This document shows, one piece after another, positions 5,950 through 31,780 of a DNA stretch of 64,000 nt (positions are counted from its first letter, which is position 1; the number at the start of each line of letters is the position of its first letter). The stretch spans positions 82,507-146,506 of the forward strand of contig DATLTS010000035.1 of the NCBI GenBank assembly GCA_035533475.1, given 5' to 3'. The notes below the pieces were generated by a model that saw only the letters and a program-made list of their open reading frames with translations, was not told where the DNA came from and did no database searches. Origin of the DNA: Mycobacteriales bacterium (GTDB lineage: Bacteria; Actinomycetota; Actinomycetes; DATLTS01). The translations under genes were made by a program, and so were the position numbers.

Positions 5950-6010
5950 GCAAAGCCGGTAGGGACCGTCGGCACGTGGCGGTTATCGGCTGGCCCCACA
6001 GCCGTGAACG
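5950..6010 (-). ncRNA. Candidate fluoride riboswitch (crcB RNA motif) in the leader of the crcB-DUF190-crcB operon
   Basis: Minus-strand RNA GGCUGUGGGGCCAGCCGAUAACCGCCACGUGCCGACGGUCCCUAC. P1 stem GGCUG/CAGCC with loop UGGGGC. Conserved A-rich AUAACCGCC block. 3' UCCCUAC with UCCC able to pair with loop GGGG (pseudoknot). Same length and spacing as remembered crcB-motif examples (GGCGAUGGxGUUCGCC..AAAC.GCC....UGAUxxCCUAC). Directly upstream of the RBS of the first crcB. Confidence 0.55.
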
Positions 6011-6054
6011 CGCAGCGATCGTACCGGGCCGGAACCGAGCGGATGATCCTGCGG

Positions 6055-7839
6055 CTAGCTGCGCCGGTGCAGCCGTCGGCCGAGGCCGGCCGAGAGCAGT
6101 AGCAGAAGGCCGACGGCGGGCACCTCCGCGGGCAAGCCGGTGGCGGGCAGGCCCGGTGCATCCGCGTGGCTCGCGGGACTCACCGATGACACGGGTTGCG
6201 TGCCTGGGCACCAGGGGTTGGCCGGCACGCCGGCACACGGGTTGGGCATCGTAGCCAAACCGGCCGGCAACGGATGCATGATGACCCGGGTACGTCGCGG
6301 GTACGTCGTCCCGGGAAGGCAGACGGTCCCACCGAGAACCGGGCCGATCGAGATCGCTTGTGAATCGCAGGCGATCTGGTCGGTGAACACCGGATTCGGG
6401 TCGGGGGCCGTGGTGCCGCCGCCGCAGGTGGTGTTGGTCTGCTGCAATGTCGACGGCGAACTCGTGGTGGTTCCGCCACCTTCCTCGTAGTTCCCGACGT
6501 AACAGTTCGCCGGCCCCGGCTCGAGCGTGGTCTCCGCGAAATCGGCGTTCGACGGGTTGCCGAAGAAGCCGTTGTGCCGGTAGCCGTTGTCCAACAAGGA
6601 GTTACCCGAGTCGTCGTACAGGCACGCGGCCGGGGTGAGGGTCCCGCCGGTGCAGGGCGGCCCGTTGTCCGGGTAGGGGACGAAAACGGTGCCCCACGCA
6701 CCGTTGTTCTCGAAGCGGTTGGCCATCACGGTGTCATTGCGGCCACCGGAGAGCGACATACCGGTCCCGACCGGGCCGGCGGCCGCGGAGCCGGCCGACG
6801 GGACGTTCGGGTTGTTGTTGTCGTGCACGTAGTTGTGCATGAACACCCAGCAGGAATGAGTGTGCGTGATGGGGCTGATCCCGTTGTTCAGGCAGGCACC
6901 ATTCTGCGGGGGCGGGTTGTCGCCGTTCTGGCTGTTGGTGTCGAATCCGTCCTCGTTGTTGTCGAACTGCGAGTTCTCGACGAGCATGGTCCCGCCCGAG
7001 TTCGACCCGGAGTACCCGAGGGCCGAGTACTCGGCCCAGGCGTGGTTCACCGTCTGGTCGCACACCTGCTGGCAGGCCCCGACGTAATAGTCGGAGTCGT
7101 CGAAGTTGCTCGCATAGGTCTGATCCCAGGTGCCACCGCTCCAGTTGCTCGAGAAGATCCCATACGCGGCGGCGGTCGCCTGGGTGCCGTAGAAAGTGGT
7201 GGTCGCGGTCAGATACGTGCCGGAGAAGTCCCAGCCGCCGACCTGGCCGCTGCCGTCCCCGCCGTTCCACCAGATCTCGTTTCCCGAAGCACCGCTACCG
7301 GACAGGAAGTTGCACGCCGTCAGATTGTCGACCGACACCCCGTCGGCCTTCCAGATCTCCACCCCGTTGCGGCCGAACGCCCGGCCGGAACTCCCCCGGG
7401 GCCCGTAGAGCTGGTCCCCCGGTGCCGACGAGCAGGCAGGCGCACCGGGCTTCGTGCCGTCGACGATGACCGTGTTGCGGTTCATGCCGCGCAGGTGGAT
7501 GCCCGGGGTGGCGATCCAGACGCCGGCACCCGCCTCCCGGCCCGCGGGATACGGCTTGTGCGTCGTGTAGTCGCCGTTCTCGTGATAGTCGCCGGGACCG
7601 ACGAGGATCCAATCGCCGGGCTTCGCGGCGTCGACGGCGGCCTGGATGCTGCGGTACTGGCCGGCTTGGCCGTGCCAGCTGCCGACCCGCAGGACGCGTG
7701 GTGCGGATGTGGCCGAGGCCGCGGACATCGTGGCCGCCGCGGTCGCCAGCACGACGGCGAGCAGGGTAGGTCGGGCGAGTCTCAGCGCGGCGGTTCGCGA
7801 CACTTGTTCCTCATCCTGCACTCGGCGGCGGACGGGCAA
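6055..7839 (-). CDS. Secreted right-handed beta-helix repeat protein (pectate-lyase-like fold), cell-wall anchored via LPATG sortase signal
   Basis: Signal peptide (AxA), Asn/Gly/Asp-rich repeats typical of parallel beta-helix, Cys pairs. C-terminus LPATG + hydrophobic segment + RRLHRRS. Confidence 0.8.
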   Translation of the reverse strand: MPVRRRVQDEEQVSRTAALRLARPTLLAVVLATAAATMSAASATSAPRVLRVGSWHGQAGQYRSIQAAVDAAKPGDWILVGPGDYHENGDYTTHKPYPAGREAGAGVWIATPGIHLRGMNRNTVIVDGTKPGAPACSSAPGDQLYGPRGSSGRAFGRNGVEIWKADGVSVDNLTACNFLSGSGASGNEIWWNGGDGSGQVGGWDFSGTYLTATTTFYGTQATAAAYGIFSSNWSGGTWDQTYASNFDDSDYYVGACQQVCDQTVNHAWAEYSALGYSGSNSGGTMLVENSQFDNNEDGFDTNSQNGDNPPPQNGACLNNGISPITHTHSCWVFMHNYVHDNNNPNVPSAGSAAAGPVGTGMSLSGGRNDTVMANRFENNGAWGTVFVPYPDNGPPCTGGTLTPAACLYDDSGNSLLDNGYRHNGFFGNPSNADFAETTLEPGPANCYVGNYEEGGGTTTSSPSTLQQTNTTCGGGTTAPDPNPVFTDQIACDSQAISIGPVLGGTVCLPGTTYPRRTRVIMHPLPAGLATMPNPCAGVPANPWCPGTQPVSSVSPASHADAPGLPATGLPAEVPAVGLLLLLSAGLGRRLHRRS

Positions 7840-7976
7840 ATCTACCCCTCGCCAGGGCGGTGTCGCCAGGAGGTCCGACGGGGTGCGACCCGACCCGACC
7901 GCGCCCGACCCGACCGCGGCTCGGTGAGAGTGCGGCCCAACCGTCCCGTGGGACAGTGAGGACGGGAAGGGGGCCG

Positions 7977-8171
7977 ATGGCGAAAATTCGGGTGCACTCC
8001 GATCGGCATCCCGGCGAAGTCGTCATGCGGGGAGTCGACGACGCCGTGCGGCGCGTGATCGACGATCAGCCAGACGCAGATCGCGAGCGGTCGCTGGGCC
8101 GGCAGGAAGCCTTCGTTCGTGAGATGCGTCGTATCGGGCGGTCCCGCCGTGACCGGCGCCGGGCGCGCTGA
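7977..8171 (+). CDS. Small hypothetical protein (~64 aa) at the edge of a lower-GC islet
   Basis: ATG preceded by GGAAGGGGG. Decent GC3 bias. Basic C-terminus. No recognisable family. Confidence 0.4.
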   Translation: MAKIRVHSDRHPGEVVMRGVDDAVRRVIDDQPDADRERSLGRQEAFVREMRRIGRSRRDRRRAR

Positions 8172-8201
8172 GCTCGAGCGATCCACCGGACCTTCCGGCG
8201 A

Positions 8202-8882
8202 TTGAGCTCGATCCGGAAGCGATCCTCCGTGCGCTCGACGGACACCGCGTTCGATACGTGCTCAGTCGACGCCCGGGTGACCTACGACCTCGATGTCGTC
8301 CCGCAAGCCGGGCATCTCAATCTGCGTCGGCTCGGATCGGCGTTGCGGAAGATTGGCGCCCGCGTGATCACCTTTTGGGATCCCGACACCGACGAGTTGC
8401 ACGTGGAGAGCATGAAGACCTCTTCGCACTTCAGCCTCGTCACGAAGCCCTCGAGGCTCCACGTCCGTCGCAGCCTTCGTGCTCTCGAAGTCCTTCTCGC
8501 AGGTGATGAGCGCTGCGGTCCTTCGATTTGCAGCGTCCCACTGCGAGGTGCCAGCACTCGCCCAGACACTGATCACTTCCCGGGGTCCGGCCGAGGCTTC
8601 GCGCGGCTCGGCGGGACGCGGGCCGGCTCGCCGGGCATCTTCGGGAAGTTCGGCGGGTACCCCGCCTCCCCGAGCCCCCGGTCCTTCTCGTCCCGCCCAT
8701 CCCATTCCAGCAGCGGCTCCAGCGAGAACGCGACGTCGTCGATCCCGGCGTGCAGATCACCCAGCTCCGCGAAGCGCGCCGGCATCGTCGCCATCGTGAA
8801 GTCGGTCGTCTCACAGTCCGCCAGCTCGTCCCAGGTGACGGGCGCCGACACGGTCGCGTCGGGTCGAGCGCGGACGCTGTAG
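8202..8882 (+). CDS. Hypothetical protein; N-terminal ~125 aa look genuine, 3' part reads antisense through the duplicated ligD fragment (possibly disrupted gene). Weak nucleotidyltransferase-like R-x-[ST]-x-D-L-D motif
   Basis: Strong GC3 bias on plus strand for 8202-8575 (minus-strand mirror ORF 8262-8705 has poor GC3). Motif RVTYDLDVV is reminiscent of AbiEii/MNT-type NTase toxins. Local GC markedly lower than surroundings. Confidence 0.35.
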   Translation: MSSIRKRSSVRSTDTAFDTCSVDARVTYDLDVVPQAGHLNLRRLGSALRKIGARVITFWDPDTDELHVESMKTSSHFSLVTKPSRLHVRRSLRALEVLLAGDERCGPSICSVPLRGASTRPDTDHFPGSGRGFARLGGTRAGSPGIFGKFGGYPASPSPRSFSSRPSHSSSGSSENATSSIPACRSPSSAKRAGIVAIVKSVVSQSASSSQVTGADTVASGRARTL

Positions 8883-21086: not shown

Positions 21087-21689
21087 GTGCCCCCGCCCCG
21101 ACCCCCAGCGCTGCCCCCGGGCTTCGCCCGCGCGGTGGCCGGCCTGCGGGCGGCCGACCTGCGGCCCGAGGTGACGGTCGGCGAGGCGCCGGCCCCGCAA
21201 CGGCTGGCGCCGTTCGCGGTGGCGCTCTCCGCGGAGGTCGCGCTCGACGGGACGGAGCTGGCCACCGGGCGCCTGGTCGTCCTGCACGACCCCGAGGGCC
21301 AGGATGCCTGGGAGGGTGAGACTCGGATCGTCGCGTTCGCGCACGCGCCGCTGGACCCGCACATGGGCGCCGACCCGCTGCTGCCTGCCGTCGGTTGGAG
21401 CTGGCTACTCGACGCGTTGACCGGGGCCGGGGCGGAGCACGCGGCCGCCGGCGGCACGGTCACCCGGGTCGCGTCGGAGCGGTTCGGAACGCTGGTCAGC
21501 CAACCCGAGGCGGCCGAGGTCGAGATCCGGGCCTCATGGTCGCCGGTCGGCGAGGACTTGGCCCCACACCTCAGAGCCTTTGCGGAGCTGCTGTGCTCTG
21601 CGGCCGGGCTTCCACCGACGACGCCTGGTGTGGTGGCGATCCCGCCCACCCGACGTGCCCGCCATCCGCGAGCTCGCGCCCGGGGGTAG
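21087..21689 (+). CDS. DUF3000-family protein
   Basis: 'LRPEVTVGEAPAPQRLAPFA' family signature. 3' end overlaps convergent kinase gene, so exact end uncertain. Confidence 0.65.
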   Translation: MPPPRPPALPPGFARAVAGLRAADLRPEVTVGEAPAPQRLAPFAVALSAEVALDGTELATGRLVVLHDPEGQDAWEGETRIVAFAHAPLDPHMGADPLLPAVGWSWLLDALTGAGAEHAAAGGTVTRVASERFGTLVSQPEAAEVEIRASWSPVGEDLAPHLRAFAELLCSAAGLPPTTPGVVAIPPTRRARHPRARARG

Positions 21690-22743
21690 CCTGCGGCAGG
21701 TCGGTTCCGTGGCCCGCCGGACCGAGGGGCAGCCGGAGGGTCAAGGTGGTTCCGTCGTGCGGCCAGGACGTCACGTCGAGTGAGCCACCGGCCAGTCGGG
21801 CCCGTTCGCGGAGCAACCCGAGCCCCACGTGCCGGCCGCGGACGGGCCGTACCTGGTCGGGATCGAATCCCGGCCCGGCGTCGGACACCGCCGCGGTGAC
21901 CCCCTCGCGATCGACGAACAGCGCAGCCTGCGCCTCGTCGACATCGGCGTGTTTCACGACGTTCAGGAGCGCCTCCTGGAAGAACCGGTAGACGGTGACC
22001 GCGGTGACCAGCGGCAGGGGGTGCGCCTCCGCGGGCCAGGCGATCCGAACCGTGAGCCCGTACCTGGTGAGCAGATCGTCGCGCAGCGCGCCGACGGCCT
22101 GCGCCAGGTCGTCGTCACGCAGCGCCGGTGGGCGGGTCCGGGCCATCACCGCCCGGACCTGATCCTCGGCCTCCGCGACGAAGTCCCCGGCAGCAGCGAT
22201 CTCCTGCGGGGTTTCGGCGCCGGAAAGATGCGATCGGGCCAGCGACAAGGTCTGCGCGACGGTGTCGTGCAGCTCGGCGGCGAGTTGCCCGCGAGCGCCT
22301 TCTTCGGCCGCGACGAGCCCCGAGAGAAGCTCGAACATGCCGATGCTTGCCGTTTGTGCGGATCGACGGTGGCGCTCCGCGACCTCGTCGGCGACGCGGA
22401 CCCGAAGATGCAGCGCCTCGAGGGTGCGGGCCAGTTCGTTGACCTCGGAGCTGGAGCGGACGGACAGCGAACCGGTCGAGGTCGAGCCGCTCGGGTCGTG
22501 CAACCGGCGGATCGCCTGCGCGCGCAGCACGCGCAGGCCCCGGGTGTAGCGGGTCGCGGCGAACGCGGCAAGCGCGCCAGCCACCGCGGCCACCGCGAAG
22601 CCGGCCAGGAAAGCCGCCGGACGCGACGGCGCCCCGCTGACGGCCATCGCCACGCCGACGGCGGCCGCGCAACCGAAGAACGCCCCACCACCCGCCAGCA
22701 ACGGCAGTGGGAGGCCCGAGGTGGATCGGCGCCAGGGCATCAC
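21571..22743 (-). CDS. Sensor histidine kinase, NarL/DesK type (HisKA_3 + HATPase_c), 2 TM
   Basis: 'LAAELHDTVAQTLS' H-box. 'GLGLLRERARLAGG' G-box region. GTG-ATG start overlapping upstream gene stop. Confidence 0.8.
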   Translation of the reverse strand: MMPWRRSTSGLPLPLLAGGGAFFGCAAAVGVAMAVSGAPSRPAAFLAGFAVAAVAGALAAFAATRYTRGLRVLRAQAIRRLHDPSGSTSTGSLSVRSSSEVNELARTLEALHLRVRVADEVAERHRRSAQTASIGMFELLSGLVAAEEGARGQLAAELHDTVAQTLSLARSHLSGAETPQEIAAAGDFVAEAEDQVRAVMARTRPPALRDDDLAQAVGALRDDLLTRYGLTVRIAWPAEAHPLPLVTAVTVYRFFQEALLNVVKHADVDEAQAALFVDREGVTAAVSDAGPGFDPDQVRPVRGRHVGLGLLRERARLAGGSLDVTSWPHDGTTLTLRLPLGPAGHGTDLPQATPGRELADGGHVGWAGSPPHQASSVEARPQSTAAPQRL

Positions 22744-24165
22744 AGCGAGAGGTTCGCCTCCGCGAGGATGCCCGTCGTGGTCCAGTGCTCCGGGGTCCGC
22801 AGATCGAGCGGTCCGTCGTCGGCGGCGGTCCCGGTGAGCCGCGCCAGCTCCGGGTCCGCGGCGATCGCGATCGCCCCGAGGAGCGAGGCGACGGCCCGTT
22901 CCACGGCGTGCAGCTCATCCACGATGTCGGTGACCTGATCGGGTTCGGTGGCGGCCAGCCGGGCCAGCCGGGACGTGGTCTCGCGGAGCACCGCGAGGCT
23001 CGGTGCGGTGTGCGCCCCGATGTCACCGAGGGCCCGGGCCGCGCCTTCCGCCGCCTCCGCCTTCTCCAGCGCCTCGGCCCGGGAGGCGGTCAGTTCGGCC
23101 AGCGACAGCCAGGATTCGGCTTGCCGCACGAGGACCTGGGCGAGCATGATCTCGCGCCGCCCGAAGCCGGCCGCGCCGGCCGGCCGGCGGGCGATCAGAA
23201 CGGCCAGCGGTGAGCCGCTGTCGCCGAGCACCGCCGAGCAGTACGGGCGCCCCTCGACGTGGCCGGTCCGCACCCCGCCGGCGCCGAGCGCCTGGAGGAC
23301 CCATGGCGAGTCGAACGCCTCCGGGTCGACCCGCCGGCGGGCGATCCCGTGCTCGTCACCGGTGAAGCGGATCGGGCCGTCCGCCCCCACCAGCACCATC
23401 TCGACGTCAGCGCCCCCGAACAGTCGCGCGGCGGCGGTGAGGACGACCAGGGCCGAGCTGTCCGTCGAGCGCCCGGCGGCCTGCTCCTGGAGGCGGGCGA
23501 GCTCGGCGAACAGCCGCGCTTCGGCGGCCCTGGAGGTCTGCTCGTCGTAGGAGAGCCAGAGCAGCAGGAGCGGGACGATCAGCCCGGCGACCCCGAATGG
23601 GGCGTGGAGGAGCAGCCAGGCGCCCAGCACCCCGAGGCTGGACGTGCCGGAGGAGTGCACCGCGGAAAGCGGGGCGGATTCCCAGAGCAGCCGGAGCAAC
23701 CGCTGGTTGGACATCACGGCGACCGCGTGGGCGATCAGCAGGTTGTTGACGAGCCAGAACACCCCCATGCCGGCGATGCCGCCGGGGACCCCGCCACCCA
23801 CCAGATGGGAGGTGGCGGCCGCCAGGGCAGTGCCGGCGCAGAACTGGGCGACGTTGTACTCGAACTTGAGCCGGGGCTGGCGCCGCACGGCGAGTGCGAC
23901 GACGATGCCGAGCGCGGCCGCGACGATGACCCACCCGCCCGGGTCGAGCACGAACGCGGCCGCCAGCGCCGCCTCGGTGAGCGAGAACGTCCAGCGTTGC
24001 CGGCCGAAGGCAAGGTGCACGACGGCGATCTCGCAACCGGCGACGGCGCCGGCGAGCAGGGGCAGCCCCCACCAGGCGACCTGGCCATAGCCCAGCCGGA
24101 AGCCGACGATCACCGCCGCCACGGACGCGAGGGTGCCGACGGTGCGGACCCGGCGGGTCGGGGTC
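22740..24165 (-). CDS. Polytopic membrane protein with C-terminal cytoplasmic GAF-like sensor domain
   Basis: About 6 TM helices then soluble domain. GTG start with GGGGAGG RBS one nt after the subtilase stop. Listed N-terminal Pro/Gly-rich extension is antisense of the subtilase repeat and rejected. Confidence 0.65.
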
Positions 24166-24168
24166 ACC

Positions 24169-25719
24169 TCAGCCTCCCCACGACTCGTCGGACCAGGTCG
24201 ACGCCGACCAGGTCGAGGCGGACCAGGTGGAGGCCGACCAGGTCGAGGCCGACCAGGTCGACGCGGACCAGGTGGAGGCGGACCAGGTGGAGGCCGACCA
24301 GGTGGAGGCCGACCAGGTGGAGGCGGACCAGGTCGAGGCCGTCCAGGCCGGCCCCGACCACCCGCTGGCCAGCCACTGCTCCCACGAACCATTCAGCCAG
24401 GCGTTTCCCTGCCACTGCTGGGAGTCGAAGCCGGCCATGCCGGACCACTGGTCGGTGGCGTCCGCGCTAAGCATCCGGTCGGCGATCTCGAGCAACCCGG
24501 CGCCAGCCGCGATCCCCGCGGTAGGACCGGAGATGGCGTCGGCCGAGCGGCGCAGCGACGCCTTGGCCTCGAGCGGGCTGGCGCCGCGGTGCTCACTGAA
24601 GAAGATGGCGGCGACCCCGCTGGCGATCGCGGTCGCCATGCTCGAGCCTGACCCACGGAACAGGCCGCTCGGTTGCCAGCCCTGCGGGTTCTGCTCGGCG
24701 ATCACCGAGTTCGCCGGCATCTCACCGAGCACGTGGACACCGGAGGCGACCAGGTCTGGTTTGGCCACACCGGCCACCAGGCCCGAGCCGGAGAAGTCGG
24801 CGACCCGCGGCGCCTCGCCGGTCGTGTCCGCGGCGCCGACCGTGAGCGCCGCGACGTCATCCCCCGGGTCACCGACCTGACCGGGCGTGTTGCCCACGGC
24901 GACGACCGGCAGGACCCCCGCGGCGAACACGTGCTCGATCCCGGCGGTCAACGGATCGGCCCCGTAGTCCGGTGCCATCGGCCGGACCTGGGCGAGCGCG
25001 ATGTTGACGACTTGGATCGCCCGCGCGTGGGCGGCCACCCAGTCCAGGCCGGCGAGCACCTCGGACAGCGAGGTGGTGCCGGTGTCGTCGGCAACCTTGA
25101 CCACGACGATCCGGGCTCCCGGCGCGACGCCCAGGGCCTGACCGTGACTTCCCGGTGCGGGGCCCCCGGCGATCAGCGAGGACAGGAAGGTGCCGTGCCC
25201 GTAGCCATCGGTGAACGTTCCGCTGGTCTGCGCCTGTCCCCCGTTGAACAGCTGCGAGACGTCGACCCCGTCGGTCACCTGACCCGAGGCCCGGTTCAGG
25301 GCGGGGGTGTCGGTGAGGCCGGTGTCGAGGACCGCGACGTTGACACCGGTGCCCGCCTCCGGCGATCCGGCTCTGCCGCCGAGCCCGGCGGACGCGAACA
25401 CCGAACCGTCGCCCGACCCGTCCTGGCCGCGGCCCTGCACCGCGAAGCGGGAGTCCCCGGCGATGCCGAGCACGCCGGGGGCGTGGGCCAACCGGGCGAG
25501 GGCGTCGGGCGTGCCGCTGACGACCTCGCTTTGGACGTGCACCAAGTTCGCCAGGAGCCGCACGCCGGGCACCGTCACCGGGTGCGTCGAGGCGAGCGCC
25601 ACGACCGCGGTGACCGGGCGCCCGGTTGGTGCCACGGCAAGGGCAGGCGTCACCGACAGCGCGAGGGCGCCGGCGGCGACCGCCGCCACTAGTGCTGCCG
25701 AGCGTCGGGAGTCGGGCAC
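24169..25719 (-). CDS. Secreted subtilisin-like serine protease (S8) with C-terminal Trp-rich (STWSA)x10 repeat
   Basis: D (VAVLDTG), H (GHGTF) and S (GSSMATA) catalytic triad motifs. Signal peptide. Confidence 0.85.
   Translation of the reverse strand: MPDSRRSAALVAAVAAGALALSVTPALAVAPTGRPVTAVVALASTHPVTVPGVRLLANLVHVQSEVVSGTPDALARLAHAPGVLGIAGDSRFAVQGRGQDGSGDGSVFASAGLGGRAGSPEAGTGVNVAVLDTGLTDTPALNRASGQVTDGVDVSQLFNGGQAQTSGTFTDGYGHGTFLSSLIAGGPAPGSHGQALGVAPGARIVVVKVADDTGTTSLSEVLAGLDWVAAHARAIQVVNIALAQVRPMAPDYGADPLTAGIEHVFAAGVLPVVAVGNTPGQVGDPGDDVAALTVGAADTTGEAPRVADFSGSGLVAGVAKPDLVASGVHVLGEMPANSVIAEQNPQGWQPSGLFRGSGSSMATAIASGVAAIFFSEHRGASPLEAKASLRRSADAISGPTAGIAAGAGLLEIADRMLSADATDQWSGMAGFDSQQWQGNAWLNGSWEQWLASGWSGPAWTASTWSASTWSASTWSASTWSASTWSASTWSASTWSASTWSASTWSASTWSDESWGG
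24181..24340. repeat. Perfect in-frame 15-bp tandem repeat x ~10 (GACCAGGTSGASGCS) inside the subtilase 3' end
   Basis: Read directly from sequence. Confidence 0.9.
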
Positions 25720-25983
25720 CCGTCATCCCTTCGTCGCAGGGCCCGCCCAGGCGGGTGTTCCGTTCTGTTCGCATACCTCGGCAGCAGCGGCGCTGGACTT
25801 TCGGCCGGCGCACCGGGTTCATCCGCACGGAGCAGTGCCGACCGCACGCGGACTGGTTAGCCCAGGCGGCCCAGTTCGGCACGGAAACGGGCTACAGCCG
25901 GCCGGCGCCGCAGCCGATGCACAGGCTGAGGCCCGGTAAGGGCCGAGACCCGGCAAGGGCCGGACCGCGCCCGAGGAGGATCC

Positions 25984-26664
25984 GTGTCGATGCTCGCCGA
26001 GCGGCCGATCACGCCGCAGCAGGGCGCGTCACTGGGCTTTTCCGCCATGGTCGTGGACGACCATCCGCTCGTCCGCGAGTCGATGGTGGCCCGGCTGATG
26101 GCCATGGGCGCCCGCGAGGTCGTCGAAGCGGCGAGCGTCGCCGAGGCCCGCGCGCGTGCCCACGCCGGTGGTCCCCGCGACCTGTGCATCCTCGACGTGG
26201 GCCTCCCGGACGGCTCCGGTCTCGACCTGCTGGCGGACCTTCGAGCCAACGGCTGGGCCCGGCTCGTCGTCCTGTCCGCCGCGGACGACCCCTACTCGGT
26301 GCGTGCCGCGTTCGTCGCCGGCGCCCAGGGCTACCTGCTCAAGTCGGCGTCACCACTCGTCGTGGCTGACGGGGTGCGCCGGGTCCTCGACGGTGGCGTG
26401 TACGCGGACCCCTCCGTCGCGTCGCTGCTCGCCGCCGGCCTGCGGGGCGGCCCGAGCACCGAAGGCGTCAGCGAGCTGTCCGGCCGCGAGGTCGAGGTGC
26501 TCCGTCTGGTCGCCGATGGACGCTCGAACAAGGAAATCGGCGAAGACCTCGGCCTGTCCGCGCTGACTGTGAAAAGCCACCTGGCCCGGATCGCGCGCAA
26601 GCTTGGAACCGGTGACCGGGCGGAGATGGTCGCCCTCGCCATGCGGGCCGGCGTCATCCGCTAG
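25984..26664 (+). CDS. LuxR/NarL-family two-component response regulator
   Basis: REC domain (D..D, 'LSAADDP', K). C-terminal LuxR HTH 'LSGREVEVLRLVADGRSNKEIGEDLGLSALTVKSHL'. Divergent from the protease-sensor-HK operon. Confidence 0.85.
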   Translation: MSMLAERPITPQQGASLGFSAMVVDDHPLVRESMVARLMAMGAREVVEAASVAEARARAHAGGPRDLCILDVGLPDGSGLDLLADLRANGWARLVVLSAADDPYSVRAAFVAGAQGYLLKSASPLVVADGVRRVLDGGVYADPSVASLLAAGLRGGPSTEGVSELSGREVEVLRLVADGRSNKEIGEDLGLSALTVKSHLARIARKLGTGDRAEMVALAMRAGVIR

Positions 26665-26701
26665 ACCCGCAACTCCCCGCCCGGCCGCTTACGGTAGTCG
26701 G

Positions 26702-27922
26702 GTGTGCGCACTCCCCCTGCTCGAGCCGCGCGACGGCGTGCCCCCGGTGGTGGCGTCACCCGACGCCTTGGCCCGGACCGTAGCGGCCTTCGCTGCCGGC
26801 ACCGGCCCGGTCGCCGTCGACGCCGAGCGGGCCTCCGGCTATCGCTACGGCCAGCAGGCCTACCTCGTCCAGATCCGCCGGGCCGGGGCCGGTACGGCAC
26901 TCATCGATCCGGTCGGATGTCCCGACCTCTCCACGCTCGGTTCCATCATCTCTAACGAGGAGTGGATCCTCCACGCAGCGAACCAGGACCTGCCCTGCCT
27001 GGCCGGCGTGGGCCTGGTCCCGCGGCTGATTTTCGACACCGAGCTGGCCGGTCGGTTGGCCGGATACGAACGCGTCGGGCTGGGCGCCATCGTCGAGGAG
27101 CTGCTCGGTTTCACCCTGGAGAAGGGCCACTCGGCCTCCGACTGGTCACAGCGGCCGTTGCCGGCTGCGTGGCTTGTCTACGCCGCCCTCGACGTAGAGG
27201 TACTCGTCGAGCTTCGGGACGCACTCGCGGCGGAGCTCGAACGGCAGGGGAAGCTCGGCTGGGCCCGCGAGGAGTTCGCGGCGATCGTCGCCGCGCCGCC
27301 CGCGCCGTCGCGGGTCGACCCCTGGCGGCGCACATCGGGCATCCACCGGCTCCGAACCCGCCGGCAGCTGGCCGCCCTGCGGGGGGTGTGGGAACTGCGG
27401 GAGAACATGGCCCGGGATCGCGACCTCGCGCCCGGCCGGCTGCTCTCCGACACCGCCCTGATCGCGGCCGTGCTCCAGGCGCCGGCGTCGGTGGATGCGC
27501 TCACCGCGCTTCCGGTGTGGGGTGGCCGGGCGACCCGCCGGCTGGCTGGACAGTTCTTCGCGGCGCTCCGTTCGGCCGGTGAGCTCCCGGAGCCGAGCCT
27601 GCCGACGGTCAACCTCGCGGTGGACGGGCCGCCCCCGACCAGCCGGTGGGCGGAGAAGGACCCGGCCGCGGCCGCCCGGCTCACCCGGGCCCGCGCCGCG
27701 GTCGCCGCCCTGGCGGCGGAACACCGGATGCCCGCCGAGAACCTGCTCGCCCCCGACCTGGTCCGTCGGCTCGCGTGGGAACCGCCCGGCCTGCACACCG
27801 AGGATGCGGTGGGGGCCGTGCTCCGGGCCGGCCGGGCGCGGGACTGGCAGGTGCGGCTGACCGCGGCCGCGCTGGCGGCGGTTCTCGATCCGCCCCCGGA
27901 GATGGACGATCCGCTCGGGTGA
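26702..27922 (+). CDS. RNase D-like 3'-5' exonuclease with HRDC domain
   Basis: DEDDy exonuclease motifs ('VAVDAERASGYRY', 'HAANQDL'), HRDC-like C-terminus. GTG start. Confidence 0.8.
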   Translation: MCALPLLEPRDGVPPVVASPDALARTVAAFAAGTGPVAVDAERASGYRYGQQAYLVQIRRAGAGTALIDPVGCPDLSTLGSIISNEEWILHAANQDLPCLAGVGLVPRLIFDTELAGRLAGYERVGLGAIVEELLGFTLEKGHSASDWSQRPLPAAWLVYAALDVEVLVELRDALAAELERQGKLGWAREEFAAIVAAPPAPSRVDPWRRTSGIHRLRTRRQLAALRGVWELRENMARDRDLAPGRLLSDTALIAAVLQAPASVDALTALPVWGGRATRRLAGQFFAALRSAGELPEPSLPTVNLAVDGPPPTSRWAEKDPAAAARLTRARAAVAALAAEHRMPAENLLAPDLVRRLAWEPPGLHTEDAVGAVLRAGRARDWQVRLTAAALAAVLDPPPEMDDPLG

Positions 27923-28398
27923 ACCAGCCGGCCATCCACACCGAGCGCTGCGTTCTCGAGCCGCTCGACATCCCCACCGCGCGCGCACTCGCGGCCGGGC
28001 GCTGGGACGCCGTGCCCGGCGGCCCGGGCTGGCCGCATCCGGACACCGCGGTCGTGGTGTCGGCGGCGCTTTCGCTGGGCTGGCCGACCTGGCTGATCCG
28101 GTGCGGGCCCGCGGATGGAGCGGTGATCGGTGAATGCGGGCTCAAGGGCGCCCCCGAGCCCGGCGGCCCGGTCGAGATCGGATACGGCCTGGCCGGCCCG
28201 GCCCGGGGCCACGGCTACGCCCGGGAGGCGGTGGCCGCGCTGCTGGGGTGGCTGGCCGAGGACCGGCAGGCGACCGCGGTGCTCGCCGAGGTCAAGCTGA
28301 CGAACACGGCGTCCCGCCGGCTGGTCGAGGGGCTCGGGTTCACCCTCGACGAGGAGCGGGACGGCTTCGCTCACTACCGGCTGCCGTTGCCCCGCTGA
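27919..28398 (+). CDS. GNAT-family N-acetyltransferase
   Basis: 'RGHGYAREAV' acetyl-CoA binding motif. GTGA overlap with upstream gene. Confidence 0.7.
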   Translation: MNQPAIHTERCVLEPLDIPTARALAAGRWDAVPGGPGWPHPDTAVVVSAALSLGWPTWLIRCGPADGAVIGECGLKGAPEPGGPVEIGYGLAGPARGHGYAREAVAALLGWLAEDRQATAVLAEVKLTNTASRRLVEGLGFTLDEERDGFAHYRLPLPR

Positions 28399-28466
28399 CC
28401 GGCCCGGCGGCCGCCGTTACCCACGGGTAATATCAGCCGCCATCCTCCTCGCTCCGGGAGTCCGCC

Positions 28467-29675
28467 GTGCCGCACGCCAGCCCCGCCGCGCCCTCCGTGG
28501 TCTTCGTCGACGGGGTCCGCACCCCCTTCGGCAAGGCCGGACCGAACGGCCTCTACGCCCAGACCCGGGCCGACGACCTCGTCGTGCACGTGCTGCGCGA
28601 GTTGCTGCGCCGGCACCCGGAGCTCCCGCCGGAACGGGTCGACGACGTGGCGATCGCCGCCACCACGCAGATCGGCGACCAGGGCCTCACCCTCGGCCGG
28701 ACCGCCGCGATCCTCGCCGGCCTGCCCAAGACGGTCCCCGGCTTCGCTCTCGACCGGATGTGCGCCGGGGCGATGACCGCCGTGACGACGATGGGCTCCG
28801 GCATCGGCTTCGGCGCGTACGACGTGGCCATCGCCGGTGGCGTCGAGCACATGGGCCACCACCCGATGGGCGAGGGCGTCGACCCGAACCCCCGGTTTCT
28901 CACCGAGCGACTGGTCGACCCTTCGGCGCTGGTCATGGGCCAGACCGCAGAGAACCTGCACGACCGCTTTCCCGAGCTGACCAGGGAGCGCGCCGACGCT
29001 TTCGCGCTCGCCAGCCAGCGGCGTTACGCCGAAGCGCTCGCCGCCGGCCGGATCGCTGCGGACCTCGTCCCGGTCGCCGTGCGGTCCGCGGAGTCCGGCT
29101 ACGGGCTCGCTACCGCCGACGAGCCGCCCCGCCCGGGCACGACGCTCGAGGATCTCGCGCGGCTCAAGACCCCGTTCCGCCCGCACGGCCGGGTGACCGC
29201 CGGCAACGCGGCCGGACTCACCGACGGCGCGACCGGTTGCCTGCTCGCCGCGGAGGACGCAGCCCGGCTGCTCGGGCTGCCGGTGAAGATGCGCCTGGTC
29301 GGCTACGCCTTCGCGGGGGTGGAGCCCGAGGTCATGGGGGTCGGGCCGATCCCGTCCACCGAGAAGGCCCTGGCCCGCAGCGGCCTGGCGATCGAGGACA
29401 TCGGGCTGTTCGAGATCAACGAAGCCTTCGCCGTCCAGGTCCTCGCCTTCCTCGACCATTTCGGGCTCGCGGACGACGACCCCCGGGTCAACCCCTACGG
29501 CGGCGCGATCGCGCTCGGTCACCCCCTCGCCTGTTCCGGGGTGCGGCTGATGATCCAGTTGGCTCGCCAGTTCACCGAGCAGCCGCGGGTCCGCTACGGG
29601 ATCACCGCCATGTGCGTCGGGATCGGAATGGGCGCAACGGTCATCTGGGAGAACCCACACTGGGAGGGCGCGTGA
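28467..29675 (+). CDS. fadA: Acetyl-CoA C-acyltransferase (3-ketoacyl-CoA thiolase)
   Basis: 'DRMCAGAMTAV' active-site Cys. 'GGAIALGHPLACSG' C-terminal thiolase signature. Confidence 0.9.
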   Translation: MPHASPAAPSVVFVDGVRTPFGKAGPNGLYAQTRADDLVVHVLRELLRRHPELPPERVDDVAIAATTQIGDQGLTLGRTAAILAGLPKTVPGFALDRMCAGAMTAVTTMGSGIGFGAYDVAIAGGVEHMGHHPMGEGVDPNPRFLTERLVDPSALVMGQTAENLHDRFPELTRERADAFALASQRRYAEALAAGRIAADLVPVAVRSAESGYGLATADEPPRPGTTLEDLARLKTPFRPHGRVTAGNAAGLTDGATGCLLAAEDAARLLGLPVKMRLVGYAFAGVEPEVMGVGPIPSTEKALARSGLAIEDIGLFEINEAFAVQVLAFLDHFGLADDDPRVNPYGGAIALGHPLACSGVRLMIQLARQFTEQPRVRYGITAMCVGIGMGATVIWENPHWEGA

Positions 29676-31780
29676 CCACCGAGTTCCCCGAGGAGGTCGT
29701 CACCCGGGCGCTGACCCGCCGGGTCGAACTTCCCGACGGCCCCGCCTTCGCGCTGATCACCCTGGACAACGGGCACGACCACACCCGGCCGAACACGTTC
29801 GGGCCGGCCGGCCTGCTCGCACTCGACGCCGCGCTCGACGCCGCCGCGGCGAGCGACGTGGATGCGATCGCGATCACCGGGAAGCCGTTCATTTTCGCGG
29901 TCGGCGCAGACCTGTCCGGGGTTTCCCGGCTCACCCGCCGGGATCAGGCGCTCGACATCGGTCGGCTCGGACACCGGGTCTTCGGCCGGCTCGGCGCCGG
30001 CAAGCCGACCTTCGCCTTCGTCAACGGAGCGGCGATGGGCGGCGGGGTCGAGATCGCGCTGCACTGCACCTACCGGACGATCTCCTCCGGGGTTCCCGCG
30101 GTCGCCCTGCCCGAGTGTTTCCTCGGGCTGGTCCCCGGCTGGGGAGGAACCCAGCTGTTGCCGAACCTGATCGGCCCGGACGCCGCCATCAAAGTGATCC
30201 TGGAGAACCCGCTCAGCCAGAACCGGACGCTCCGCGGCGCGCAGGCTTTCGAGCTCGGGCTGGCGGACGCCCTGTTCGAGCCGGCCGACTTCCTCGAGCG
30301 CTCGCTGCACTGGGCCGCCGACGTGCTCGCCGGCCGGGTCCGCCCCGCCCGGCCGGAACCGGACCGCGGCCCCGCCTGGGACGAGGCCGTGGCCCGCGGC
30401 CGGGACCTGGTCGACGCCTCGGTGCACGGTGCCGCCCCGGCGCCCTACCGGGCTCTGGAGCTGATCGCTCTTGCGAAAAGCGCGGATCGGGCCACCGGGT
30501 TCGCCGCGGAGGACGAGGCGCTCGCCGACCTGATCCTCGGCGAGGAACTGCGCTCCGGGCTGTACGCGTTCGACCTCGTCCAAAAGCGGGCGCGCCGCCC
30601 GGTCGGCGCCCTCGACCGGTCCCTCGCCCGGCCCGTCACCAAGGTGGGCATCGTCGGCGCGGGGCTGATGGCCAGCCAGCTCGCCACCCTGTTCGTCCAG
30701 CGGCTCGAGGTCCCGGTCGTGCTGACCGACGTCGACCAGTCCCGGCTGGACACCGGCGTCGGATACGTCCACGGCGAGGTCGACCGTCTCCTCGGCCGGG
30801 GCCGGATCACGCCCGACCGGGCGAACCGACTCAAGGCTCTGGTCACCGGGTCGCTGTCGAAAGCCGGATTCGCGGACGCTGACTTCGTCATCGAGGCGGT
30901 GTTCGAGGAGTTGACGGTCAAGCAGCAGGTGTTCGCCGAATGCGAGGCGGTCGTCTCCGACACGTGCGTGCTCGCTACCAACACATCCTCGCTGTCGGTC
31001 ACGGCGATGGCCGCGGGGCTCAGCCACCCGGAGCGGGTCGTCGGCTTCCACTTCTTCAACCCGGTCGCCGTGCTGCCGCTGCTGGAGATCGCGCGGACCG
31101 CGCGGACCGACGACCCCACATTGGCCACCGCGTTCACTATCGCCCGGGCGCTGAAGAAGTCGGCGGTGCTCGTTAAAGATGCTCCGGCGTTCGTCGTGAA
31201 TCGGGTGTTGACCCGATTCCTCGGCGAGGTGACCCGCGCGGTCGACGAGGGCACGGCTTTCGAGGACGCCGACGCTGCCCTGCGGCCGCTGGGACTGCCG
31301 ATGTCGCCGTTCGAGTTGCTGGCCCTGGTCGGGCCGACGGTTGCGCTGCACGTCGCGGAAACGTTGCATGCCGCGTTCCCCGAGCGCTTCTACGTGTCGG
31401 AGAACCTCCGCCGGATGGTGGAGGCGGGCAAGACCGGTGTGTACAGCTGGGCGTCCGGGGCGGCGCAGGTGGACCCCGAGGTAGCCGACCTGTTTCTCCG
31501 ACCAGCCGACCCGCGCGCGTCCTCCGCGGAGGAGGTGCGCGGCCGGGCCCTCGACGCGCTCGCCGAGGAGATCCGGCTGATGCTCGACGACGGGGTCGTC
31601 GCCGAGGCAGCGGACATCGACCTGTGCCTGCTCCTCGGCGCCGGTTGGCCCTTCCACCTCGGCGGAATCACCCCGTACCTGGACCGCGCGGGGGTCTCCG
31701 AACGGGTCGCCGGCCGGCGATTTCTGCCCGCCGGCGTGGCCAGCCTGCCGCGCATGGATTGCCCAGATTCACCCGATTGA
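29672..31780 (+). CDS. fadB: Fatty-acid oxidation complex alpha subunit (enoyl-CoA hydratase + 3-hydroxyacyl-CoA dehydrogenase)
   Basis: Crotonase fold N-terminus. 'VGIVGAGLMASQLA' NAD-binding. GTGA overlap with fadA. The listed 1006-aa ORF starts too far upstream. Confidence 0.9.
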   Translation: MTTEFPEEVVTRALTRRVELPDGPAFALITLDNGHDHTRPNTFGPAGLLALDAALDAAAASDVDAIAITGKPFIFAVGADLSGVSRLTRRDQALDIGRLGHRVFGRLGAGKPTFAFVNGAAMGGGVEIALHCTYRTISSGVPAVALPECFLGLVPGWGGTQLLPNLIGPDAAIKVILENPLSQNRTLRGAQAFELGLADALFEPADFLERSLHWAADVLAGRVRPARPEPDRGPAWDEAVARGRDLVDASVHGAAPAPYRALELIALAKSADRATGFAAEDEALADLILGEELRSGLYAFDLVQKRARRPVGALDRSLARPVTKVGIVGAGLMASQLATLFVQRLEVPVVLTDVDQSRLDTGVGYVHGEVDRLLGRGRITPDRANRLKALVTGSLSKAGFADADFVIEAVFEELTVKQQVFAECEAVVSDTCVLATNTSSLSVTAMAAGLSHPERVVGFHFFNPVAVLPLLEIARTARTDDPTLATAFTIARALKKSAVLVKDAPAFVVNRVLTRFLGEVTRAVDEGTAFEDADAALRPLGLPMSPFELLALVGPTVALHVAETLHAAFPERFYVSENLRRMVEAGKTGVYSWASGAAQVDPEVADLFLRPADPRASSAEEVRGRALDALAEEIRLMLDDGVVAEAADIDLCLLLGAGWPFHLGGITPYLDRAGVSERVAGRRFLPAGVASLPRMDCPDSPD

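Follow-up and report, generated by a model that had tools for sequence, protein, structure and literature searches.

A conserved protease-sensor-kinase operon with a divergent NarL-type regulator in uncultured Frankia-like actinobacteria

We analyze a 64,000-nt stretch of a Mycobacteriales genome (contig DATLTS010000035.1; hereafter, “the window”) in which three closely packed minus-strand genes encode, in order, a subtilase, a membrane protein (the middle protein, “MID”) and a histidine kinase, with the gene of a NarL/FixJ-family response regulator transcribed divergently from them. All four genes were found where the original prediction had placed them, and its account of their anatomy is largely right. 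New relative to it are three features described below: the Trp repeats that end the protease, a sigma-28-type promoter motif and a WhiI-like setting of the regulator.

Anatomy of the locus

The gene at the head of the operon (24169-25719, minus strand) encodes a 516-aa pre-pro-subtilase that is predicted to be secreted. The protein matches Peptidase_S8 in Pfam (PF00082; 116 bits, E = 2.5e-33) and is composed of a Sec-type signal peptide (~aa 1-30, read from the sequence), a propeptide-like region (~36-90), a catalytic domain (~120-410) and a Trp-repeat tail. The D132/H175/S360 triad and the oxyanion N277 are invariant in relatives, and the best Foldseek matches of the AF2 model (pTM 0.79) are pro-subtilisins, including the propeptide (3afg at 1.8e-24). 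A triad in subtilisin order, an oxyanion Asn and a predicted subtilisin fold point to a subtilase (MEROPS S8). A mycosin (TIGR03921) was ruled out (90.7 bits versus a cut-off of 278.75, and no C-terminal hydrophobic helix); there were no ESX genes in the neighborhoods examined.

In the tail (24172-24375, minus strand), Trp recurs at every fifth residue up to the last residues of the protease, with 14 copies in the window, including 10 regular STWSA units. The underlying DNA is a 15-bp tandem repeat (TRF: period 15, 10.5 copies, 90% matches). All 120 protease homologues among the matches listed carry such a tail, with 5-19 copies (mode 14) of the unit W-S-A-[S/A/V]-[S/T]. The pentapeptide-repeat family (PF00805) was ruled out for the tail, which has no Pfam match beyond Peptidase_S8 and is modeled by AF2 as unstructured (pLDDT < 50).

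The MID gene (22740-24167, minus strand) starts at GTG 24167, with GGGGAGG ahead of it, and the resulting 475 aa align end to end with 41 homologues. The longest reading frame, a 550-aa ORF from ATG 24392, is an artifact, as its first 75 residues are the protease repeat array read out of frame. The three genes had been described as translationally coupled through overlaps of 1-4 nt. This holds for MID and the kinase, whose start is GTG 22743 or ATG 22740 and whose overlap with the MID TGA is correspondingly 4 or 1 nt, but not for the protease and MID, as 1 nt lies between the protease TGA (24171-24169) and the MID GTG in the window; in relatives with called genes, that overlap is 4 nt.

Profile searches of Pfam and NCBIfam with the window MID returned no match, and MASE9 (PF20972) was not matched even at E up to 10. 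Homologue alignment, AF2, Foldseek and hhalign together suggest that residues 1-215 form a MASE9-like membrane domain, in which 50-61 make a beta-hairpin, and that residues 235-330 form a small GAF-like domain; a long helix (337-384) then leads to a conserved C-terminal helical hairpin (~390-437). The AF2 model (mean pLDDT 74.5; ~90 in the membrane domain) has about six membrane helices plus the short hairpin, and its external loops are a few residues each. Among the 41 family members, 14 match MASE9 (E up to 0.05; best E = 7e-7), the window copy not among them; homologues P0103, P0111 and P0112 score 27.2, 25.6 and 29.8 bits, against a Pfam gathering score of 24.3 bits. Support for the GAF-like domain is modest: GAF domains make up nearly all of the best 50 Foldseek matches in the PDB (E ~1e-2, target TM-scores up to 0.64), hhalign aligns this short domain (~100 aa) with the GAFs of fused relatives at E = 6.4e-4 over 106 columns, and GAF_3 is matched by one of the 41 family members (E = 0.016), the window copy having no Pfam GAF match. 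These results agree with the earlier prediction of several membrane passes and a GAF-like domain on the cytoplasmic side, and the domain search of the middle protein, a check set beforehand, did point to sensor-type domains.

In distant relatives, the MID module is fused to PAS/GAF-HisKA-HATPase or to GAF-GGDEF-EAL. Its membrane and GAF parts are homologous to the N-terminal input region that fused histidine kinases and GGDEF-EAL proteins carry. E46, N105 and N141 in the membrane, as well as the C-terminal helices, are kept in relatives of 27-56% identity. No similarity between these helices and a DHp domain was detectable by hhalign, and AF2 confidence is low in that region.

The 390-aa kinase (21571-22743, minus strand) matches HisKA_3 (28.6 bits, cut-off 24; E = 2.2e-6) and HATPase_c (41.2 bits, cut-off 26.4; E = 2.5e-10) in Pfam, which shows no sensor domain of its own. 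Hydropathy predicts two N-terminal membrane helices (~aa 11-33 and 43-61) separated by a ~9-residue loop; these are followed by a HAMP-like linker, the HisKA_3 H-box (His159 in AAELHDT) and HATPase_c. The histidine is kept in 88 of 88 tblastn matches covering that residue. The best NCBIfam matches (UhpB, MctS and MacS) are all far under their cut-offs. With two predicted helices, a very short loop and no other sensor domain, the kinase appears to have the input layout of intramembrane sensing. Its 3′ end overlaps a convergent DUF3000 gene by 119 nt.

On the opposite strand, the 226-aa regulator (25984-26664, plus strand) combines Response_reg (2e-17) and GerE (3.3e-18) domains in Pfam, in keeping with the divergent LuxR-family regulator of the original prediction. 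Its phosphorylation pocket is complete (D25, D26, D71, S98, K120) and invariant in 73-74 loci. The closest solved structure is DevR/DosR (3c3w, 6.6e-25), and VraR is among the closest. The domains of the kinase and the regulator would place the pair in the HisKA_3/NarL-type two-component class.

Conservation of the genes and of two intergenic motifs

A four-gene signaling cassette is conserved in uncultured Frankia-like actinobacteria; the best 120 matches listed in protein searches all come from one uncultured clade. Gene order is retained in essentially all of 80 species-level genomes, so that the three-gene arrangement is co-conserved in relatives, a point singled out for checking beforehand. 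MID and kinase genes are adjacent in these 80 genomes, mostly with 4-nt overlaps, and in every syntenic locus the regulator gene is a direct, divergently oriented neighbor. However, the positions of the flanking RNase D, DUF3000 and EamA genes are equally conserved within the main clade, so shared synteny accounts for part of the co-conservation there, and independent evidence comes only from a few distant contexts. MID and kinase genes also stay side by side in unrelated contexts where identity is down to 28-38%, among them two pairs that share a contig; no regulator gene lies near the distant pairs L085 and L088. The idea of a split sensor kinase holds up, given this adjacency, a kinase input of only two helices and a ~9-residue loop, and the homology of the MID module to the input part of fused kinases.

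The protease is present in ~90% of syntenic loci. It also travels with MID at 30-35% MID identity, its tail included (L090 and L091), and in every protease-containing neighborhood examined, a MID gene follows immediately downstream. It is missing from 6 of ~70 syntenic loci and from L087, all of which keep sensor, kinase and regulator, and likewise from the L085 and L088 pairs. This distribution marks it as an old, dispensable partner and not an obligatory gate, and the earlier suggestion of protease-gated signaling has to be given up as an obligatory mechanism. The model also gives both sensor and kinase external loops of only a few residues, which would leave a protease little to cut. Among relatives, regulator identity is 77-91% versus 44-72% for the other three proteins.

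The intergenic region shared by the protease and regulator genes contains two motifs, which were counted in related sequences with mononucleotide shuffles as controls. On the plus strand, a promoter-like element (25892-25918), CTACAG-N15-GCCGAT, stops 65 nt short of the regulator start and can be read as a -35 TACA, an N16 spacer and a -10 GCCGATGC. It occurs on the regulator strand in 65 of 71 related loci, whereas the opposite strand has 6 and shuffled sequences average 1.3 (maximum 6), and a position table of 63 instances finds it once in the 64-kb window. The published sigma-28/WhiG consensus is T(A/C)AA-N16-GCCGATAA or CTCA-N16-17-GCCGAACT, with the central CGA conserved (PMC12871210), and WhiG promoters typically have N16 spacing (PMC7005675). 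The element fits this consensus with one -35 mismatch and N16 spacing.

The second motif is an operator-like site on the minus strand (25819-25834), TGCTCCGTGCGGATGA, located 100 nt upstream of the protease start. It agrees with the BldM-WhiI site TGnnCCGnnCGGGTGA (PMC4125116) at 11 of 12 specified positions. Allowing at most one mismatch, the site is found in 14 of 71 related intergenic regions (shuffle mean 0.34, maximum 3) and, allowing at most two, in 40 of 71 (shuffle mean 4.6, maximum 11), mostly on the same strand and at a similar position. We regard it as a candidate binding site of the regulator.

Proposed mechanism and alternatives

We lean, with a little more than even confidence, toward a vertically inherited two-component system that divides sensing and kinase functions between two proteins and has the secreted protease as a frequent third partner. 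From gene anatomy, domains, conservation and the two DNA motifs, we infer the interactions, the cue, the direction of regulation and the role of the protease as follows. MID would perceive a cue in or at the membrane via its MASE9-like domain, where polar residues within the bilayer are conserved; the small GAF-like domain on the cytoplasmic side may have a share in sensing. The state of MID would be passed to the adjacent kinase by membrane-helix packing and by the conserved C-terminal helical hairpin of MID. The kinase would then autophosphorylate on His159 and transfer the phosphate to Asp71 of the divergent NarL-type regulator. The phosphorylated regulator would bind the TGnnCCGnnCGGnTGA-like site in the shared intergenic region and, bound there, control the protease-sensor-kinase operon, and probably other genes too. 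The regulator gene itself may be driven by the sigma-28/WhiG-type promoter, in which case the system would be armed only while that sigma factor is active. The exported subtilase would act on the envelope or on extracellular proteins, as an effector or a feedback arm, probably held at the membrane or wall surface by its Trp-repeat tail.

The role of the protease could also be read in other ways. An ordinary subtilase engaged in nutrient scavenging or envelope turnover might share the transcript merely as a regulated output or passenger, with no feedback. Its catalytic domain is that of a generic subtilisin, at 44-62% identity it is conserved less than the other three proteins, several otherwise intact loci do without it, and two-component operons with a protease gene as a regulon member are known (mprAB-pepD, and CssRS with htrA/htrB). 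This reading is nonetheless rather improbable in our judgment, because it is a specific W-tail subfamily that accompanies MID over deep divergence, with overlapping stop and start codons: the tail is present in all 120 homologues among the matches listed, and all those with an examined neighborhood sit directly upstream of MID. At the other extreme, the protease might carry the signal. The W-S-A-x-S array would then be a built-in precursor in a quorum-like peptide-signaling module, cut to Trp pentapeptides by its own or a neighbor’s protease and sensed by the MASE9-like domain of MID, which would switch the kinase. Such Trp-containing pentapeptides would partition into the membrane interface, and the tiny external loops of MID and the kinase favor a small membrane-partitioning ligand. 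The exact five-residue period, the 5-19 copies and the conserved unit in 120 of 120 homologues among the matches listed are consistent with a precursor, as are the persistence of the array where MID has diverged to 30-35% identity and its predicted disorder (AF2), which would leave it accessible to proteases. Precedents are the Phr pentapeptides of Bacillus, which subtilisin-family proteases release, and the multi-core precursors of cyanobactins, which the S8 proteases PatA and PatG cleave. However, we know of no signaling system in which the precursor is fused to the protease, and a role as an anchor or as a glycosylated stalk would suit the repeat just as well. There is no sign of cleavage sites or of export of Trp peptides, and loci that have neither the protease nor a W-repeat ORF in the available flanks retain MID, kinase and regulator; we consider peptide signaling of this kind distinctly unlikely.

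A further alternative concerns MID itself, which might be unrelated to the kinase and have a role of its own, e.g., ECF S-component-like binding or transport, or that of a nucleotide-binding GAF protein with another output. The ECF S-components RibU (5kbw) and FolT (9kym) are indeed in its Foldseek list, with target TM-scores of 0.51-0.56, and MID has no recognizable output or DHp domain. We give this very little credence, as MID always has a kinase without a sensor beside it, even in unrelated contexts, homologous modules occur as fusions with kinases and GGDEF-EAL domains, and ECF transporter genes are absent beside MID in every locus examined.

Relation to known systems

Taken as a split sensor and kinase with a divergent regulator, the locus is an uncharacterized variant of an accessory-sensor two-component system. 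Like LiaF-LiaS-LiaR of Bacillus and VraT-VraS-VraR of Staphylococcus, it combines a NarL-type regulator with a HisKA_3 kinase that has two membrane helices joined by a minimal loop; a neighboring membrane protein would supply or modulate the input, and the operon is probably autoregulated. However, MID has MASE9-like and GAF-like domains, kinase-fused in relatives, in place of a LiaF-type domain; the regulator here is divergent and outside the operon, which is headed by a subtilase. The kinase scores 49.4 bits with the NCBIfam LiaS model, versus a cut-off of 450, and MID has no Pfam or NCBIfam match, so we do not assign the locus to this family.

A genetic link between a two-component system and an extracytoplasmic serine protease is also found in MprAB-PepD of Mycobacterium and CssRS-HtrA/HtrB of Bacillus, where the protease, either co-transcribed with an envelope-related two-component system or under its control, acts back on the signal. 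Those proteases are of the HtrA type (S1C) with PDZ domains, whereas here a pre-pro-subtilisin (S8) with a Trp-pentapeptide tail is encoded by the first gene of the operon.

MASE9 is described as a promiscuous sensor whose ligand is probably bound inside the membrane (bioRxiv 10.1101/2021.11.05.467447). As described there, MASE9 proteins resemble MID: their membrane domain has multiple helices and a short intramembrane hairpin, polar and charged residues lie in the bilayer, and the external loops are very short. The outputs we found listed there are HD-GYP, HD-GYP-GAF-GGDEF and GGDEF-EAL, with no kinases among them, whereas MID is unfused to an enzymatic output and stands, with its GAF-like domain, beside a separate kinase; the Pfam match to MASE9 is marginal.

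The regulator also invites comparison with WhiI (SCO6029/vnz_28820), an orphan atypical response regulator of Streptomyces sporulation in which the conserved Lys and one residue of the Asp pair are missing and which has no kinase next to it (PMC4125116). WhiI is reported to be absent from Frankia (PMC4255298). Both proteins belong to the NarL/FixJ family and are unusually well conserved. In S. coelicolor, whiI (SCO6029) is followed by a putative ribonuclease gene (SCO6028) and fadAB (SCO6027-6026); the corresponding order in the window is regulator, RNase D, GNAT, FadA and FadB. By the ribonuclease gene and fadAB, the regulator occupies the chromosomal slot of whiI. Transcription of whiI is from a WhiG (sigma-28 family) promoter, which the motif conserved upstream of the regulator resembles, and the conserved intergenic site resembles the BldM-WhiI operator. 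Unlike WhiI, with its degenerate pocket and orphan status, the regulator described here has a full, invariant pocket and an adjacent kinase. On the basis of chromosomal position and DNA motifs, its locus may thus be a kinase-partnered counterpart of the Streptomyces sporulation regulator WhiI.

Gene anatomy of the locus

The DNA of the window is actinobacterial in character (GC 69-75%), and its 21571-26664 stretch carries three genes on the minus strand and one divergent gene on the plus strand. The operon begins with a subtilase of 516 aa (24169-25719, minus strand; Pfam Peptidase_S8, E 2.5e-33), continues with a stand-alone sensor protein of 475 aa, which we call MID (22740-24167, minus strand, starting at GTG 24167), and ends with a kinase (21571-22743, minus strand; HisKA_3/HATPase_c by Pfam). 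The divergent gene encodes a response regulator (25984-26664, plus strand; REC-GerE by Pfam). The original prediction had described this gene anatomy, and the Pfam domains at these positions bear it out. On one side the locus is flanked by DUF3000, EamA and SIMPL genes, and on the other by genes for RNase D, a GNAT acetyltransferase, the thiolase FadA, and FadB.

The start of MID lies 5 bases past a GGGGAGG and 1 base past the protease TGA, and the start codon of the kinase (GTG or ATG) overlaps the TGA of MID. The longest middle ORF would start at ATG 24392 and encode 550 aa, of which the first 75 codons are the protease repeat array in another frame; we rejected this start because its N-terminus (PPPGRP...) is that array read out of frame and because homologues align from GTG 24167. 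The 475-aa product and 41 homologues align over their full lengths. Read in the alternative frame, the array (24169-24392, minus strand) forms a proline-rich pseudo-N-terminus, and database gene calls are likewise over-extended or fused, as in P0121 (a 686-aa homologue joining an S8 fragment to MID) and in MID homologues of 520-548 aa.

Several smaller features were seen at the gene borders. The 3′ ends of the kinase gene and the convergent DUF3000 gene share 119 nt (21571-21689), and the kinase has a 49-aa tail past its HATPase domain; the overlap is similar in the related locus L003 and absent from L001 and L004. The longest RNase D ORF (from TTG 26603) runs 62 nt into the end of the regulator gene (26603-26664, plus strand). 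Since the gap between these two genes is about 60-90 nt in L001, L003 and L004, the true RNase D start in the window is probably further downstream. No sigma-70 promoters or intrinsic terminators were found in the locus region, and a riboswitch or other known RNA was discarded as a candidate there, as Rfam gave only a chance tRNA-Sec match inside the MID gene (E 0.79).

A putative sensor and a kinase in separate genes

The kinase lacks a sensor domain, and its two membrane helices are joined by a loop of about 9 residues. Intramembrane-sensing kinases, whose input needs a partner, are built in this way. Sensor-less kinases that rely on accessory membrane proteins are already known. The window's own copy of MID has no Pfam or NCBIfam match. 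A match to MASE9 is seen in 14 of the 41 homologues; this membrane sensor domain was described in proteins with HD-GYP or GGDEF-EAL outputs (bioRxiv 10.1101/2021.11.05.467447). In an AF2 model of MID, aa 1-215 form a helical membrane domain that includes a short hairpin and is modelled with confidence. Next come an alpha/beta domain (aa 235-330, roughly 100 residues), a long helix and, with low confidence, a helical hairpin (about aa 390-437). GAF domains make up nearly all of the top 50 Foldseek matches of the model (E about 1e-2), and the MID profile matches the Pfam-recognised GAF domains of fused relatives at E 6.4e-4 over 106 columns. An exhaustive search gathered the relatives of MID into 431 clusters, and in the most distant of these the same membrane module is fused to GAF-GGDEF-EAL, PAS-HisKA-HATPase or GAF-HisKA-HATPase.

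Three polar residues within the membrane helices are conserved (E46, N105, N141), and the C-terminal helical hairpin is the best-conserved part of MID among relatives of 27-56% identity. We considered whether these C-terminal helices are a degenerate DHp or phospho-His domain and rejected the idea, as hhalign gave E 0.24-0.43 and His386 is unconserved in distant relatives. Among the Foldseek matches there are also S-components of ECF transporters, RibU (5kbw) and FolT (9kym), at target TM-scores of 0.51-0.56, which suggests that the modelled MASE9-like membrane domain (aa 1-215) may share their small-molecule-binding six-helix fold.

MID has 822 detected homologues, the named ones all "hypothetical", from metagenomes and MAGs labelled Frankiales, Frankiaceae, Acidothermaceae, Jatrophihabitantaceae or "Mycobacteriales". 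A relative of MID occurs in roughly 154 GTDB genomes. The arrangement RNase D, regulator / protease, MID, kinase / DUF3000, EamA hardly varies across 80 species-level genomes. Because the flanks are equally syntenic, this arrangement alone is not proof of functional coupling, and more can be learned from the exceptions and from distant relatives. The protease is absent from six loci (L019, L030, L047, L053, L078, L081) and from the more distant L087, in all of which the regulator stays divergent from the MID-kinase pair; no W-repeat ORFs were found in the available flanks of these loci. One metagenomic contig (shared by L085 and L088) carries two convergent, paralogous MID-kinase pairs in an unrelated context (6001-8354 and 10210-12706 in L085), with MIDs 33% and 28% identical to that of the window and neither a protease nor a response regulator near them. 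From the protease-less loci and the distant contexts it therefore follows that MID and the kinase are the invariant core. As a separate observation, a small unannotated gene stands ahead of each pair on this contig, and one of the two encodes a lysine/proline-rich repeat protein.

The protease is an ancient yet dispensable companion of this core. In L091 and L090 (MID 35% and 30% identical), a gene end carrying the Trp repeat directly precedes MID; in L090 this upstream gene is a recognisable S8 fragment and both ends of MID have 4-nt overlaps, and in L091 a kinase gene follows MID and overlaps it by 4 nt. The window's protease has a Sec-type N-terminus, and its AF2 model (pTM 0.79) comprises an alpha/beta domain resembling a propeptide and a catalytic domain predicted with confidence, with unprocessed pro-subtilisins as the closest structural matches (3afg at 1.8e-24). 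The 40 homologues compared all keep the triad D132/H175/S360 and N277. The final ~70 residues (24172-24375, minus strand) are an uninterrupted array with Trp in every fifth position (W-S-A-[S/A/V]-[S/T]), encoded by a 15-bp tandem repeat, which we call the W-tail. Among the matches listed, it is present in 120 of 120 protease homologues, with 5-19 units (mode 14), and reaches the C-terminus; wherever the protease is present, the W-tail is co-conserved with MID. It matches no Pfam family or solved structure and is unstructured in the AF2 model, and we found no description in the literature of a subtilase with a C-terminal tail bearing Trp at every fifth residue. A word-indexed protein search with the repeat consensus gave no candidates for the W-tail in other proteins, since no database entry had three 5-residue words in common with it. 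The W-tail might anchor the enzyme at the membrane surface, serve as a stalk or be a signal precursor built into the protease.

Taken against the alternatives, a split sensor kinase is the best-supported model, and this part of the original prediction stands on the lack of a sensor domain in the kinase and on the fusion of the MID module to kinases elsewhere. The prediction had also proposed that the module is protease-gated or peptide-sensing; protease gating as an obligatory feature is not supported, given the six loci and L087 that do without the protease. Peptide sensing is a minority possibility, which the pentapeptide tail makes more concrete. The protease is not a mycosin/ESX protease, as its score of 90.7 bits falls short of the cut-off of 278.75 and a membrane anchor is absent, and its tail is not a pentapeptide-repeat beta-helix, being without a Pfam match and modelled by AF2 as disordered. 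An anti-phage defence system was likewise set aside: PADLOC returned only generic subtilase and helix-turn-helix matches, and the conserved chromosomal position also speaks against it.

Intergenic DNA and a possible relation to WhiI

The divergent intergenic region spans 264 bp and holds blocks conserved across the family. Of 71 related loci, 65 carry a promoter-like motif, GGCT[A/T]CAG-N15-[G]CCGA[T/A], on the strand of the regulator, and 6 carry it on the opposite strand (shuffle mean 1.3), these and the following motif statistics being drawn from related sequences. Its sole occurrence within the 64-kb window is at 25892-25918 (plus strand), upstream of the regulator gene, as TACA-N16-GCCGATGC, read as a -35 TACA, N16 and a -10 GCCGAT. 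The consensus reported for actinobacterial WhiG-type (sigma-28 family) promoters is T(A/C)AA-N16-GCCGATAA or CTCA-N16-17-GCCGAACT, with CGA invariant (PMC12871210), and N16 spacing is characteristic of WhiG-type promoters (PMC7005675). The sequence at 25892-25918 fits this consensus with one mismatch in the -35 element, has the N16 spacing, and is a putative WhiG-type promoter.

A conserved 16-bp operator-like site, TGCTCCGTGCGGATGA, lies at 25819-25834 (minus strand), 100 nt ahead of the start codon of the protease gene; a second, weaker copy is near 25862-25877. It agrees at 11 of 12 specified positions with the BldM-WhiI heterodimer site TGnnCCGnnCGGGTGA, an operator defined experimentally in Streptomyces venezuelae (PMC4125116). 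With at most one mismatch it is found in 14 of 71 loci (shuffle mean 0.34), and with at most two in 40 of 71 (shuffle mean 4.6). The presumed 5′ leader of the regulator gene, downstream of the promoter-like motif and ahead of the start codon, also contains a 17-bp direct repeat, GGCCGAGACCCGGCAAG (2.6 copies, 25924-25966, plus strand); a related k-mer, CGAGACCGGC, is present in 19 of 71 related loci.

WhiI, the orphan response regulator of Streptomyces sporulation, is a WhiG-dependent, highly conserved NarL-type protein with a degenerate pocket (PMC4125116), and it was reported absent from cultured Frankia (PMC4255298). In S. coelicolor, whiI (SCO6029) is accompanied by a putative ribonuclease (SCO6028) and fadA-fadB (SCO6027-6026). 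This mirrors the window, where the regulator, RNase D, GNAT, FadA and FadB follow in order at 25984-31780 (plus strand), the GNAT gene being an addition. Whereas WhiI is an orphan with a degenerate pocket, the window's regulator is canonical and kinase-partnered: its pocket (D25/D26/D71/S98/K120) and His159 of the kinase are invariant, and it is 77-91% identical among relatives versus 44-72% for the protease, MID and kinase. Its position, promoter type, operator type and family liken it to WhiI, of which it may be the canonical counterpart. No WhiI or BldM chain was among the solved-structure matches.

Proposed mechanism and significance

In the split-kinase model, MID would perceive its cue in the membrane, by its GAF-like domain, or both, and would control the sensor-less kinase, which would phosphorylate the divergent regulator. 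The regulator, its expression gated by a sigma-28-type factor, would act on the operator in the shared intergenic region, and the protease would serve as an exported effector or feedback arm. A further reading, which we consider doubtful, is that the locus is an ancestral, still phosphorylation-dependent WhiI switch, comprising a WhiG-driven regulator, a sensor-less kinase, a separate MASE9/GAF sensor and a subtilase whose W-tail supplies or positions the extracellular cue; Streptomyces would then have lost the three upstream genes, its receiver pocket would have decayed, and the orphan WhiI would be what is left.

Systems of this kind are already known: intramembrane-sensing kinases that work with an accessory membrane protein, and two-component systems linked to a protease. 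Our literature searches turned up no system in which a MASE9/GAF sensor standing on its own is combined with a W-tail subtilase, a regulator driven from a WhiG-type promoter and a context like that of whiI, and the protein families of the locus are unannotated. If our reading holds, the accessory protein would here be an entire MASE9-plus-GAF input module, of a kind that is fused elsewhere to kinases and c-di-GMP enzymes. The locus would then be a clean natural case of one sensor kinase divided over two genes, and it would give several hundred "hypothetical" proteins their first functional context. As all members found come from uncultured Frankiales- or Acidothermaceae-like soil and peat genomes, testing will need heterologous reconstruction. 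The interest of the locus would be higher if WhiI orthology were confirmed. Because WhiI is an orphan and its receiver pocket is dead, its input signal has been hard to pin down; a WhiI relative that retains its kinase and sensor would, if truly such, open the original input to experiment.
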